A stretch of DNA of 64,000 nucleotides, taken from assembly GCA_028824685.1 (NCBI GenBank), contig JAPPCZ010000086.1:270339-334338 (forward strand), written 5' to 3'. The first letter of the stretch is position 1, and every line of letters starts with the position of its first letter. A program made the translations under genes and the position numbers. Below the pieces are notes generated by a model. That model was not told the DNA's origin. It did no database searches and saw only the letters and a program-made list of their open reading frames with translations. Shown here in pieces: positions 28,001 to 35,331 of the stretch. The DNA is from Candidatus Poribacteria bacterium (GTDB lineage: Bacteria; Poribacteria; WGA-4E; WGA-3G).

Positions 28001-28058
28001 TGCGGTGAATCAACGCAACAATTAGTGATGGAGCGTGGGCGGTTTCCAACCGCACCAC
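28001..28058. repeat. REP-like palindrome TGCGGTT-TCC-AACCGCA interrupted by a 32-nt insert flanked by GCGGT direct repeats
   Basis: GCGGT at 28002-28006 and 28039-28043; the insert begins GAATCAACG (reverse complement CGTTGATTC). Confidence 0.6.
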
Positions 28059-28190
28059 ATATTCGTGAAGATGTTCTTCTTCAATGTATTTTAAACAGTA
28101 TTCGCAAAATAGCAACCCGTGGCAAATAGCATCTGTCCAAGCCCAACGCAGCTAGAAACCTCATTTACCTTGATTGGAAAGCGAAACTCT

Positions 28191-29657
28191 TTAAAAGTGT
28201 GTCAACGGTTCGCTCTCTTTTAATTCCCATAGGGCATGCCCAAATTCACAAGCACCAGGTGATGAACCTCTAAAGGTTTCTGTTTGAATCCCCCACGCTA
28301 ATTTATACGCTGAGATAATTTGCGTCAATGAAGTGGAAACATCTCCATAGCAGAGAATAGCTGCAGTCCCGCCACCGCCACCACCGGTGATTTTGGCTCC
28401 GTAGATACCACCTTGTTCTCCAATTTTTTGTGCGATATTGACAAGTCCGTCAATTTCGGGCGAACCAAGTCCTGCTAAATCTCTATAACTTGCATTCGAT
28501 TCATACATGAGGCTACCCGCCACTTTCAGAAAATCACTTGCGCGTTCAGGGTATCTATCAACACTTTTGATGGCATCTATAAATTGCTTTACCCGCTCAT
28601 TTTCAAATATCGGATGTTGGACGCGGTCCTTGACTGTATAAACTTTCTCAGGATTAACCTGTGTAGCGGAATCAACGGTCTCACCATATTCATCAAGAAA
28701 TTCATTGCCTTGCATCTTTTCAGGCAAAATCGGTTCACAATGCTCACGAAATTCTTGGACAGAAATATTACACAAATAGTTGTCTTCCAACTTTTCCCAT
28801 CCGAGTTCTTTTTTTAAGATTGATAATCCCATAAATGCTGCGGTTCGTGTGTCAATATAAGCATCGCTTTTAGTGCTTCGGGGTGCTTTCGTATGGATAC
28901 CGATAAAACTAACATCTTGCGGACATTCAACGAATTCAAGAATTTGGTCCGGTTGACACAGAATAGAAAGCATCTTATTCCTTGTGCCAGCTGCGGAAGT
29001 CACCTGATCCATAATACCACATGGTGCTCCGACAATTTGATTTTCAACGATTTGTGCAAGTCGCGCGATCTCCATCGTGTCTAATTCCAGACTGTAAAGT
29101 TGATTGAGTACAGTCAAGGTCGCTACTTCAATTGCTGCGGATGAAGCAATACCTGCTCCCATCGGAATATCACTTTTGATAACTATTGCAGCACCGTGCG
29201 GAAACTCTTCAATCTTTTTTTCTTTTAGTAGGGAAAAAAAACAACCGAGAACATATCCTACCCATGTTGTTCGCGCCTCCATGCTAAAGAGTTCTTTGAC
29301 CTGATTATACGATTTGAGAGCATCATCAGCATAGAAATCATCAAGCGACATCTGAAAACTGGGTTTTAATCGGCTATGTGCTTGTAGTGTTAATGTATAG
29401 AGATTTCTATCTTCCCTTGCTTGACATGCTGCAACTGCAGCACGGTTTAATGTCATTTCAAAAACATTTGATCCAGAGTAATCCGCGATGCCTCCCATTA
29501 TGTCAAGTCTTGCCGGCGCGCGAGCGACCATTACGTTCCCATGCTTTTGGAATCCGTGTGGACAGAAAACTTCAGGAGAATCGCTTTGTAAAAGATATTC
29601 AAGTTCAACTACCTGAAGTGTTTTTTCTTTGGGACCGTGAATCTGCTCAACTTTCAT
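28191..29657 (-). CDS. GHMP-family sugar kinase (galactokinase/L-arabinokinase-like)
   Basis: RAPARLDIMGGIADYSG, PMGAGIASSAA, GAPCGIMDQ and GAKITGGGGGG motifs. Confidence 0.88.
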   Translation of the reverse strand: MKVEQIHGPKEKTLQVVELEYLLQSDSPEVFCPHGFQKHGNVMVARAPARLDIMGGIADYSGSNVFEMTLNRAAVAACQAREDRNLYTLTLQAHSRLKPSFQMSLDDFYADDALKSYNQVKELFSMEARTTWVGYVLGCFFSLLKEKKIEEFPHGAAIVIKSDIPMGAGIASSAAIEVATLTVLNQLYSLELDTMEIARLAQIVENQIVGAPCGIMDQVTSAAGTRNKMLSILCQPDQILEFVECPQDVSFIGIHTKAPRSTKSDAYIDTRTAAFMGLSILKKELGWEKLEDNYLCNISVQEFREHCEPILPEKMQGNEFLDEYGETVDSATQVNPEKVYTVKDRVQHPIFENERVKQFIDAIKSVDRYPERASDFLKVAGSLMYESNASYRDLAGLGSPEIDGLVNIAQKIGEQGGIYGAKITGGGGGGTAAILCYGDVSTSLTQIISAYKLAWGIQTETFRGSSPGACEFGHALWELKESEPLTHF

Positions 29658-29732
29658 TTGTATTTTTGGCTGAACGGTATTAAATTAGCAGTCAGTTACC
29701 AGTTGTCAGAAATCAGTTTTAGTTGCATATTC

Positions 29733-29752
29733 GGACTTACAAGTCCTTCTAC
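29733..29752 (-). repeat. GTAG-type REP-like palindrome
   Basis: Minus strand GTAGAA-GGACTT-GT-AAGTCC. Confidence 0.5.
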
Positions 29753-29779
29753 AAGATAAACACTTCTTTCAACTTAATT

Positions 29780-31387
29780 TTAAGGATTGACAACCGTGAC
29801 ACTTTCACCCACTTTGAGAGAATGTTGCCCGGCGATAACAACGGAATCTCCTTCATTCAATCCGCTCACTATTTCTACTTCACCGCCACGAGATAGCCCA
29901 ATCTCTACAGGACGACGTTCGCTCACCCCTGCTTCTACAACAAAAACATTCTGCGTCTTTGTCTGGGCATCTTCAATAAGAGAAGTCCGTGGGACAAGAA
30001 TGGCATCTGTATGCACCTCAACAGGGACAGTGACTTTGGCAAACATTCCAGGTCTGAGCGTGCCTTCAAGGTTATCAATACGAATTTCAACCTTTGCAGT
30101 GCGCTGCATCGGCTGTAGCGTTGGACTGATATACGAGATCGTTCCCGATATCGGGGTATTGATACCATCAATATTGATAGAAGCTTGTTGATTTAGTGCG
30201 ACTTGGCTCAAGTGTACTTCAATAACATCTGCTGTTGCTTTGACTGTGTCAATATCTACAATTTCAAATAAAGGTGCAGTTGGAACTGCCATGCCACCTA
30301 AATCTAAGTATCGTTGTGAAACGATACCATCAATAGGTGCTTCAATTGTGGCATCTCTCAGTCGTTTTTTGGCAAGTTTAAGAGCAATGCTGGCTTGTGT
30401 CTGTGCGGTCTTTGCAGTCGTTATCTCTGCTTCCCAACTTTTTGCTTTTTCTAAGGCGTGTGCGGATGTAAATCCTGCTTGTGCTGTATCCACTTGAGAT
30501 TGTGCAAGTGCGATGTCTTTTTCCCATGTTTTAGTAGAGGCTTGTGCTTGTGCCAATCTGAGTGCAGCCTTTGCTTGCTCCACCTGTGCTTCCATCGCCT
30601 GAATGTCTTCTTCCCGCGCGCCATTATCAATTAGTTGGAGTTGTTCAGTAGCAATTTTATGCTGCGCTATCATAACATCTAACTGTGTCTGGCTGTTTTC
30701 CAATGATTGTTGACTAATTGCTCCGTTCTTAAAGAGTTCTTCCATACGGGCATAGTTGTTTTGCGCATTCACAAGGCTTGCCTTTGCCTGCTTCAAGCCT
30801 GCTTCTGCTTGGCGTCGGTCTTCATCACGGGCGCCTGTTTTTATTTTTTCCAGATTTGCCTCAAGAGATTTTAATCCTGCTTCAGCTTGATCTATTTGCG
30901 TGACAGTGCGAATTTCCGCAAGTTCTTTGACCTGCAGTAGCGAGACTTCAGCAGCATTCAGTAGCGCCTTTGCTTGTGCAACTTGTGAATGTACGCGAAC
31001 TTTAGCGAGTTGTTGTGTTTGAGAAAACGCAGATTCGGCTGCTTCCAATGTTGCTTCCGCTTGTTGAACTGCAAGTTTTAATTCTTCATGCTCAATGACC
31101 GCAAGTGGATATCCTTTTTTAACACGGTCACCCTCGCTTACAGAAAGGGAAATGATACGACCAGAAATTTTGGGAATCACGCTCACACGAGATTCTGCTT
31201 CAATTGTTCCCGATAATTGAAGTTCTGAACGAATTTCACCACGTTTAGCCTTAGCGATTTCTACAGGTTTAGAAACCTCTGTTTGATCTGTTGCTTCGAC
31301 TGCTGTTTTATCGGGTTTCAAAAATCGAAACATTGCAATCACAGCAATCACAGCAATTATGATAATGCCAATCCAAAATTTTTTCAA
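29780..31387 (-). CDS. Efflux periplasmic adaptor (membrane fusion protein) with extended coiled coil
   Basis: N-terminal TM anchor; lipoyl halves VSEGDRVKKG / IEAPIDGIVS; LRPGMFAKV; GLNEGDSVV. Confidence 0.88.
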   Translation of the reverse strand: MKKFWIGIIIIAVIAVIAMFRFLKPDKTAVEATDQTEVSKPVEIAKAKRGEIRSELQLSGTIEAESRVSVIPKISGRIISLSVSEGDRVKKGYPLAVIEHEELKLAVQQAEATLEAAESAFSQTQQLAKVRVHSQVAQAKALLNAAEVSLLQVKELAEIRTVTQIDQAEAGLKSLEANLEKIKTGARDEDRRQAEAGLKQAKASLVNAQNNYARMEELFKNGAISQQSLENSQTQLDVMIAQHKIATEQLQLIDNGAREEDIQAMEAQVEQAKAALRLAQAQASTKTWEKDIALAQSQVDTAQAGFTSAHALEKAKSWEAEITTAKTAQTQASIALKLAKKRLRDATIEAPIDGIVSQRYLDLGGMAVPTAPLFEIVDIDTVKATADVIEVHLSQVALNQQASINIDGINTPISGTISYISPTLQPMQRTAKVEIRIDNLEGTLRPGMFAKVTVPVEVHTDAILVPRTSLIEDAQTKTQNVFVVEAGVSERRPVEIGLSRGGEVEIVSGLNEGDSVVIAGQHSLKVGESVTVVNP

Positions 31388-35027: not shown

Positions 35028-35076
35028 GTGAATTCCTCCTATATTATAATCTCTTAATAGCATTTACACAAATTCA

Positions 35077-35099
35077 GTAGTACGTGGTTTTCACCACGT
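35077..35099 (+). repeat. GTAG-type REP-like palindrome
   Basis: GTAGT-ACGTGGT-TTTC-ACCACGT. Confidence 0.5.
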
Positions 35100-35136
35100 T
35101 ATCTATATTATAAAATAACATCTATATATCCGTTAA

Positions 35137-35165
35137 AGTATATCACGTTTCAGATTTTACGTCAA
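35137..35165 (-). promoter_or_regulatory. Sigma70-type promoter for the Ycf48-like/tolC/adaptor genes
   Basis: Minus strand TTGACG-N17-TATACT. Confidence 0.55.
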
Positions 35166-35234
35166 CGTAATTTGAGAGGTTCTCAAAGGCATCAATTGTC
35201 TATTAATCGCAAATTCTAACATAGGTTTCTTCTT

Positions 35235-35331
35235 GTAGAAGCGATCTCTGAATCGCGACGAAAACACTGATAGTCGGGAATCGGAGTTCCCTACCCCCAA
35301 ATGCCAAAAAGCGCATTTGGCGTTGATTCAC
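35235..35331. repeat. Pair of REPs (family A + family B); the family B copy carries a 35-nt micro-insert
   Basis: GTAGAAGCGATCTCTGAATCGCGAC, then TAGTCGGGAATCGGAGTTCCCT-AC-[CCCCAAATGCCAAAAAGCGCATTTGGCGTTGATTC]-AC. Confidence 0.7.

Follow-up and report, generated by a model that had tools for sequence, protein, structure and literature searches.

A candidate family of 34–36-nt miniature insertion elements, built on a hairpin and a constant tail, in one genus of Candidatus Poribacteria

A stretch of 64,000 nucleotides (nt) of Candidatus Poribacteria DNA (assembly GCA_028824685.1, contig JAPPCZ010000086.1, positions 270,339 to 334,338 of the forward strand; hereafter the window) carries short inserts, here called (a), (b) and (c), that end in the motif CGTTGATT and that an earlier note had described as interruptions of repetitive extragenic palindromic (REP) sequences. 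Our analysis suggests, with a probability of roughly 0.7, that (a) and (b) belong to a family of miniature insertion elements of 34–36 nt that is specific to the genus. The family itself is very probably a mobile insertion element. Given mobility, a single-strand mechanism of the HUH type is our tentative proposal, which we rate somewhat below an even chance.

The hairpin-and-tail family and its copies in the window

Insert (a) splits the core of a GTAG-type REP exactly between GGGAACTCC and GATTCCC, as had been claimed. The 24-mer that joins the two sides of the empty core is found 106 times in the source genome (G000, a 5.41-Mb draft of a sponge symbiont, Candidatus Poribacteria, in 112 contigs with 42.9% G+C). 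Insert (b), also said to lie within a REP, proved to be a family copy that adjoins a complete REP and does not split it. The features at the two places are listed below, where E values come from an nhmmer search with a profile built from 48 well-bounded copies, and classes I and II are the subfamily groups described further on.

31487–31501, + strand: left half of the host GTAG-type REP, GTAGGAGGGAACTCC
31502–31536, + strand: element copy (a), class I, 35 nt, GGAGAATGCCAAAAGGCATTCATACCGTTGATTTG, made up of G, the hairpin GAATGCC/GGCATTC and ATAC-CGTTGATT-TG (E 3e-9)
31537–31549, + strand: right half of the host REP, GATTCCCGACTAC
35271–35294, − strand: complete GTAG-type REP with intact core, its GTAG end abutted by (b)
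35296–35330, + strand: element copy (b), class II, CCCCAAATGCCAAAAAGCGCATTTGGCGTTGATTCAC, with the usual first G replaced by C, the hairpin CCAAATGC/GCATTTGG and then CGTTGATT-CA (profile match 35298–35328, E 2e-8)

As DNA, (a) is predicted to fold into a hairpin of −7.3 kcal/mol (z −4.0) and (b) into one of −6.9 kcal/mol (z −2.2). The profile detected 415 family copies in G000 at E≤0.01 and 471 at E≤0.1, and the motif CGTTGATT occurs 827 times in the genome. Around 805 of these sites the base composition departs from the background from about −29 to +10, and a stem of at least 7 base pairs (bp) lies directly upstream of 331 of the 805, versus 70 of 2000 random positions. Among 800 CGTTGATT sites, 322 fall outside any profile match, which is approximately the chance level predicted from window shuffles. 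Within the window alone the enrichment is weak, with eight occurrences of CGTTGATT against 3.41 expected, a count reached in two of 100 shuffles; only (a) and (b) among the eight are family copies, the others lying inside genes or in (c). The copies are almost entirely intergenic, since 410 of the 415 sit outside crude open reading frames (ORFs) that cover 84% of the genome, and they occur in either orientation relative to genes. No match to the window was found in Rfam at the gathering score.

The element starts with a G, which is followed by a hairpin of 7–9 bp, the tail CGTTGATT and 2 nt, mostly TG, for a total of 34–36 nt, and its copies group into a few subfamilies. Class I reads G-G(G/T)-GAATGCC-loop-GGCATTC-ATA(C/G)-CGTTGATT-TG and contains an ATA bulge, across which GG or GC on the 5′ side matches CC or GC on the 3′ side. 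Class II reads G-NNNAATGC-loop-GCATTNNN-CGTTGATT-NN and forms a continuous 8-bp stem, whose outer triplets are CCA/TGG in 28 copies, CTG/CAG in 20, CAG/CTG in 15 and CCG/CGG in 10. These outer triplets are fully paired in 86 of 116 class II copies; in 1000 shuffles of the arms among copies, the number averaged 44 and never exceeded 55. Because the triplets are inherited subfamily states, they represent several compensated variants and not 86 events. By these counts, the hairpin is under constraint and its arms covary between subfamilies. The 257 full-length copies comprise 127 distinct sequences of one hairpin design in few subfamilies, and the commonest 36-mer occurs 24 times with 12 different flank pairs. 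The element bodies are thus homologous and not free to vary, contrary to the variable body that had been proposed.

The family is enriched only in this genus among the 176 genomes of the phylum that were searched. A 20-nt arm-plus-tail pattern, with one mismatch allowed, was present in 2–334 copies in 18 of 18 genomes of the same genus and in none of 12 genomes from three other families of the order. The 12-nt tail GCGTTGATTTGG was found in 1–357 copies in all 40 genomes of the genus comparison set (G000 included), with 0–11 copies elsewhere and 0–4 for control motifs, and copy number varied approximately 100-fold between sister species. Among the matches listed in public data, 79 of 80 loci were in metagenome-assembled genomes (MAGs) of Candidatus Poribacteria. 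The phage and plasmid comparison that the earlier note had suggested returned no element copy from IMG/VR or from the plasmid and phage collections.

Elsewhere in the window, the N-terminal part of a 447-aa ORF (36957–38300, + strand) weakly matched AAA/ABC ATPases from defence systems (MADS3, the retron Eco8 effector and Rad50), with every match far below its cut-off.

Empty counterparts, target sites and nesting

The 12 nt to the left and the 12 nt to the right of each of 800 CGTTGATT sites were joined at all plausible cut points, and a site was scored as having an empty paralogue when the joined 24-mer was present elsewhere in G000. Exact empty paralogues were found for 171 of the 800 sites, with insert lengths of 34 nt (49 sites), 35 nt (35) and 36 nt (53), which bears out the earlier description of a near-constant-length element with a fixed end. 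The left boundary of the unit is the G that precedes the hairpin, and its right boundary lies 2 nt beyond CGTTGATT. Since the boundary ambiguity is only 0–1 nt, there is no target duplication.

Insertion takes place between C and G at (Y)CC^G, in one orientation. Of 52 distinct contexts, 48 had C as the base at −1, 37 had C at −2, and 47 had G at +1; the left flank of the 257 full-length copies was CCC in 152, TCC in 33, GGC in 26 and TAC in 12; and in other Poribacteria MAGs the left flank ended in C in 88 of 99 class I copies. The REP targeting that had been proposed therefore held in part, as REPs are entered but are not the sole target. The favoured sites are GTAG-type REP palindromes, at the loop of the GGGAA-CTCCGA-TTCCC core, at CC^GTAGG and at ACCC^GAC, together with the loops and tails of older copies, so that nested and tandem arrays arise. 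In total, 34 junction classes in unrelated host sequence were distinguished, of which the following are the largest.

TCCC^GTAG: 22 filled sites, 8 different element sequences
ACCC^GACC: 13 filled sites, 12 different element sequences
TTCC^GTAG: 10 filled sites, 3 different element sequences
ATAC^GCGC, the loop of another copy: 10 filled sites, 4 different element sequences
CTCC^GATT, the REP core of (a): 9 filled sites, 6 different element sequences

The presence of different subfamilies at one site type argues for repeated independent insertions and not for the copying of one composite. In addition, all 15 filled REP cores carried the element in the same orientation and none in the reverse, beside 176 intact 16-mer cores in G000.

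Empty alleles, which the earlier note had proposed to look for, were found between sister genomes as well. Locus (a) was filled in both G000 and G012, with flanks 98–99% identical and two base differences in the element, and the G012 copy has a stem mismatch. In G046 the same REP had an intact, empty core, and its GTAG end bore a class II copy of opposite orientation; in G002 and twelve further genomes the place was occupied by a spacer of 64–73 nt (71 nt in G002) with no REP. No orthologous empty allele for (b) was found in G012 and G046, because other REPs replace the cluster there. Contig C15 of G000, with 44 copies in 142 kb, was compared with contig C100 of G012, and three places filled in G000 were exactly empty in G012.

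C15:27156–27188: ACCC^GACAC, 34 nt
C15:88195–88228: GAGCTCC^GTAGG, 35 nt
C15:115303–115338: CTCTACCC^GACCTAC, 36 nt

The second of these has a paralogue in G000 (132938–132971) that maps to the same place in G012. Four further C15 copies were filled in both genomes, and one of six automatic empty calls (C15:58641) proved on alignment to be filled in both. For 34 of 50 copies no orthologous site was recognisable, and this screen mostly failed because intergenic DNA turns over fast. Altogether, four orthologous loci, namely (a) and the three C15 places, were filled in G000 and empty in a sister species. Such clean differences indicate gain, or precise loss, of units after the divergence of genomes that are about 95% alike; precise deletion between repeats at the four empty sites is unlikely, because the boundary repeat is 0–1 nt.

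In public sequencing runs, no contig over the window bridges or skips the 35-nt unit (a) itself, and contigs from RNA runs gave no usable cover of the element. The whole REP cluster at 31421–31616, between adaptor and TolC-like genes, is missing in contigs of related strains, and runs X6 and X9 and RNA run X4 have 28 other letters in its place.

Several features of C15 itself were recorded. This contig of 141,653 bp has an element density 3–4 times that of the genome and encodes ParA, two TnpB, an IS200-type TnpA (77383–77736), a YhgA-like transposase, a methyltransferase-HNH fusion, a phage tail tube protein and many WD40 proteins, and it may be an accessory replicon. Upstream of a TnpB element, at C15:4860–4985 (locus L170), the 15-nt unit GTATACGTGTATATTT is repeated about eight times in tandem. 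Between C15:~115,240–115,300 and G012 C100:~2,990, the spacer of a GTAGGTCGGGT... REP doublet is inverted while its arms are identical.

The nested arrays contain further unit types. At CATACC|CG junctions, 33 of 255 had an exact empty paralogue for a 26–28-nt tail-less unit ending in ...ACC, and one such difference is orthologous between G000 and G012; the cut after CC inside the element would thus seem able to serve as an alternative right end. Octamer repeats of the tail, CGTTGATT-TCTTGATT(-TCTTGATT), occur genome-wide, for example at C15:87045–87110; the double tail GTTGATTTCTTGATT occurs 59 times, and the extra octamers equal in number the tail-less hairpins preceding them. A second unit of 25–26 nt, consisting of CATG and an 8-bp hairpin with no tail, sits in the 5′ arm of class II (GAAT^GCC), for example at C15:~11040–11064 (L170), on contig C26 near 43,030–43,090 and at locus L013, and at one orthologous place a 25-nt copy is present in G000 and absent in G012. 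Class I loops also hold a longer element with inverted ends TGAAGATTAA(T/A)TTATT... (C15 near 50,540–50,720 and C16 near 122,270). No long 'master' copy with the same hairpin at both ends was seen in our search.

Mechanism and competing explanations

We propose that the element is non-autonomous, and that it would be excised or copied in the form of a single-stranded DNA hairpin and then joined again. The enzyme responsible, supplied in trans, would cut after CC and would be either an HUH tyrosine transposase akin to the REP-associated tyrosine transposases (RAYTs) or one not yet recognised; the hairpin would serve as its recognition handle, and the tail would set the right-hand cut 2 nt after CGTTGATT. 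The HUH kind is favoured because precise, oriented CC^G insertion with no duplication, dependence on a hairpin, nesting and recent turnover are marks of the single-strand 'peel and paste' transposition carried out by HUH tyrosine transposases (IS200/IS605, RAYT).

Several observations weigh against this reading. Although 36 of the 40 genus genomes gave a match to the Pfam family Y1_Tnp, none was obtained in G001 (which is 97% complete and has 120 class I copies), in G010 (with 136 copies), in G044 or in G032, the last being only 73% complete, and a RAYT protein query found nothing in G001, G010 and G044. The RAYT-like genes of G000 (C81:3737–4423 and C16:14463–15026) are flanked by GTAGGTCGGGT... 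GTAG REPs and not by the element. The ends of resident IS200/IS605 and TnpB elements are unrelated hairpins. No replication-strand bias was detected in the draft genome, with 146 versus 162 copies relative to GC skew, which 65% of crude genes follow, and the element has one hairpin, not two. A Pfam scan of 90 ORFs of the element-rich C15 gave nothing that ties any gene to the element, and no small gene was among the three ORFs that matched GIY-YIG (573, 289 and 627 aa). A search for a co-occurring HUH, recombinase or reverse transcriptase gene had been suggested, and no enzyme is linked to the element in the genomes searched. Many filled sites may, moreover, be copies of larger composites, so that events would be fewer than sites, and insert (c) does not fit the family, as described below. 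Finally, at one junction nested in a tail, G012 reads CATACC-G-TTGATTT and G000 reads CATACC-C-(35 nt)-C-TTGATTT, which is not what simple insertion at C^G would give; the difference may reflect the gain of 35 nt and a change of G to C, or a 27-nt tail-less unit together with a duplicated octamer.

The alternative that survives best, which we nevertheless hold unlikely, is that the units are modules of mosaic arrays, like the bacterial interspersed mosaic elements (BIMEs) of E. coli and the neisserial intergenic mosaic elements (NIMEs), not mobile alone and reshuffled by recombination, slippage and gene conversion between REP clusters. The copies do cluster, with 88 neighbour pairs no more than 300 nt apart (65 direct and 23 inverted), and composite units are found repeatedly, with about 127 CATACCCG junctions and the 59 double tails noted above. 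Tail-less 'insertions' with at least 8 nt of boundary homology and the gain or loss of whole REP clusters between strains would likewise suit such a process. However, the same 34–36-nt unit, with boundaries within 1 nt, stands in all 34 unrelated junction classes, different subfamilies occupy the same site type, no flanking homology able to drive recombination is present, and orthologous sites are cleanly empty.

We give little credence to a further version of mobility, in which the unit is a self-sufficient minimal single-strand transposon substrate, moved by a not-yet-recognised enzyme class that cuts after CC and joins at CpG, (c) being a rare outcome, a foreign 24-nt body that had acquired the tail. 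Some genomes with 40–120 copies show neither a Y1 or RAYT gene nor a reverse transcriptase.

Spread of an RNA copy by reverse transcription and insertion, which Elhai et al. in 2008 reportedly proposed for small dispersed repeats of Nostoc, appears improbable here. Copies that point the same way as both flanking genes are modestly in excess (146 versus 91), and structure-preserving changes in the stem would suit an RNA. On the other hand, the reverse transcriptase family RVT_1 was not found in G000, and it was present in only 18 of the 40 genus genomes, not including G017 (334 class I copies), G001 and G012. The RNA route is therefore no better supported than the HUH reading.

It is very improbable that the hairpin and tail form a selected functional site, such as one that binds a nucleoid protein or stabilises RNA, whose mobility is incidental. 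The strictly intergenic position of the copies and the maintenance of the hairpin by compensatory change agree with such a role, and the reverse complement of the tail, AAATCAAC, is one that we take to resemble the WATCAA core of integration host factor (IHF) sites, as in the IHF-containing BIMEs of E. coli. A site of this kind is difficult to reconcile with the roughly 100-fold variation in copy number between sister species, with copies that differ between 95%-identical genomes, with copies nested in each other and in either orientation to genes, or with the stem mismatch in the G012 copy of (a).

The acquisition-type system that the earlier note had raised, storing variable bodies of about 24 nt before a constant CGTTGATT tail, is hardly tenable. 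It draws on insert (c), whose surroundings are as follows.

28007–28038, − strand: insert (c), located in a REP arm; its 32-nt body is unique and unfolded and ends in GCGTTGATTC
28039–28054, + strand: REP hairpin GCGGTT-TCC-AACCGC(A), with a copy of the 5′ arm, TGCGGT, at 28001–28006 on the other side of (c)

The reported interruption of a TGCGGTT-NNN-AACCGCA hairpin by (c) was confirmed: the boundary ambiguity is 5 nt (GCGGT), removal of 37 nt would restore a 7-bp stem, and at the orthologous place in G006 the REP is uninterrupted, GGTAGGTGCGGTTTCTAACCGCA. Its membership of the family did not stand. The body forms no hairpin (z −0.35), has no paralogue in G000 and no copy in the 39 other genus genomes, and was not called by the nhmmer profile. 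What favours acquisition is this unique body before the 12-nt tail GCGTTGATTCAC, the only part that (c) shares with (b), and the fact that the ends can be phased as CC^G. Of the 248 GCGTTGATTCAC tails, however, 231 belong to ordinary family copies, and most of the remaining 17 are chance matches in coding regions, or copies that have been truncated or have degenerated. The 322 tails outside family matches yielded no second insert that combined a unique body with an empty paralogue, and the bodies are a few homologous subfamilies. Insert (c) is probably an aberrant or decayed relative of the family. A supposed fourth case at window positions 1–39 lacked support, as it has a different motif, CGTTAATC, no REP context and no paralogue.

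Other candidate classes were considered and rejected. The diverse, unrelated spacers of a CRISPR-like array were not seen, the bodies being homologous hairpins. In the attC sites of integrons, an inverse core RYYYAAC at one end pairs with a core GTTRRRY at the other; the tail GTTGATT departs from the latter at its sixth base, and the 5′ end lacks an inverse core. A classical miniature inverted-repeat transposable element is not supported, as there are no terminal inverted repeats and no target-site duplication (0–1 nt ambiguity), and a reading as restriction fragments was dropped on sequence grounds.

Significance and comparison with known systems

How REPs, small dispersed repeats (SDRs) and other repeats shorter than 40 nt move is still unsettled. 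The family provides unusually clean material in this respect: more than 100 of its filled sites can be paired with an exact empty site, its target is defined as CC^G, its orientation does not vary, its hairpin arms covary, and there have been recent gains between genomes about 95% alike. Natural controls also exist, in sister genomes with and without Y1 or reverse transcriptase genes and in a sister genus without the element; together, these make a biochemical or comparative search for the moving enzyme practical. The family is also relevant to the assembly and annotation of Poribacteria MAGs, because contigs break in these repeats.

The earlier note could match the inserts to no named element class. 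By analogy, their size, hairpin, nesting and lack of duplication place them with the SDRs of Nostoc and with REPs, the closest known kinds, like which the family appears to work. It fails the tags and doublet form of REPs and REPINs and the size and host of SDRs.

Members of the IS200/IS605 family and their derivatives that carry no gene move by single-strand 'peel and paste' carried out by Y1 HUH transposases, have left and right hairpins and show a replication-strand bias. The Poribacteria element resembles them in the lack of target duplication, oriented insertion beside a short motif, hairpin dependence and seamless empty sites, but differs in its single hairpin, its length of 36 nt, the lack of a lagging-strand bias and ends unrelated to those of the resident IS200/IS605 copies. 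BIMEs of E. coli and NIMEs of Neisseria, the latter with dRS3, are intergenic arrays of short palindromic units joined by constant short motifs. The arrays described here share this organisation, but single Poribacteria units have exact empty sites in many unrelated contexts.

REP and REPIN elements with RAYT transposases are described by Bertels and Rainey 2011 (PMC3116915). Di Nocera et al. 2013 (PMC3733652) note that certain families of REPs are located within other small palindromes, and that CGTC-tagged REPs are without a dedicated transposase. The element resembles REPs in being an extragenic stem-loop of 20–40 nt with a conserved tag at one end and a high copy number, and resembles the CGTC-tagged REPs, as portrayed in PMC3733652, in being without a dedicated transposase. 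In contrast to REPs, its tag is CGTTGATT, 3′ of the hairpin, and not GTAG or CGTC, and the GTAG REPs of its own genome serve as its targets. It forms direct or nested arrays and no inverted doublets, unlike REPINs, and it flanks no RAYT gene.

The SDRs, families SDR1–8 from Nostoc punctiforme and its relatives, are said to have been described by Elhai et al. in 2008 as units of 21–27 nt in the Nostocaceae group. They reportedly have a compensated hairpin and hundreds of dispersed intergenic copies, nest in one another and, in the case of SDR5, insert into HIP1. The Poribacteria element shares their very small size, compensated hairpin, hundreds of intergenic copies and lack of a linked enzyme, as well as site-specific insertion, nested insertion into its own copies and other repeats, and adjoining short tandem repeats, here of the octamer TCTTGATT. 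It is set apart from SDR1–8, by description, in its length of 34–36 nt versus 21–27 nt, although the separate 25–26-nt CATG-hairpin and 26–28-nt tail-less units do fall in the SDR size range. It differs further in its conserved 10-nt single-stranded tail and in its host, which belongs to Poribacteria and not to Nostocaceae and in which HIP1 is not enriched (45 copies in G000). Among the matches listed in a literature search, with supplements outside its scope, there was no description of DNA repeats of Poribacteria, and none of the works citing the SDR paper, judging from their listing, concerns this phylum. What is new here is a well-defined Poribacteria family; very small mobile hairpin repeats as a kind are already known.

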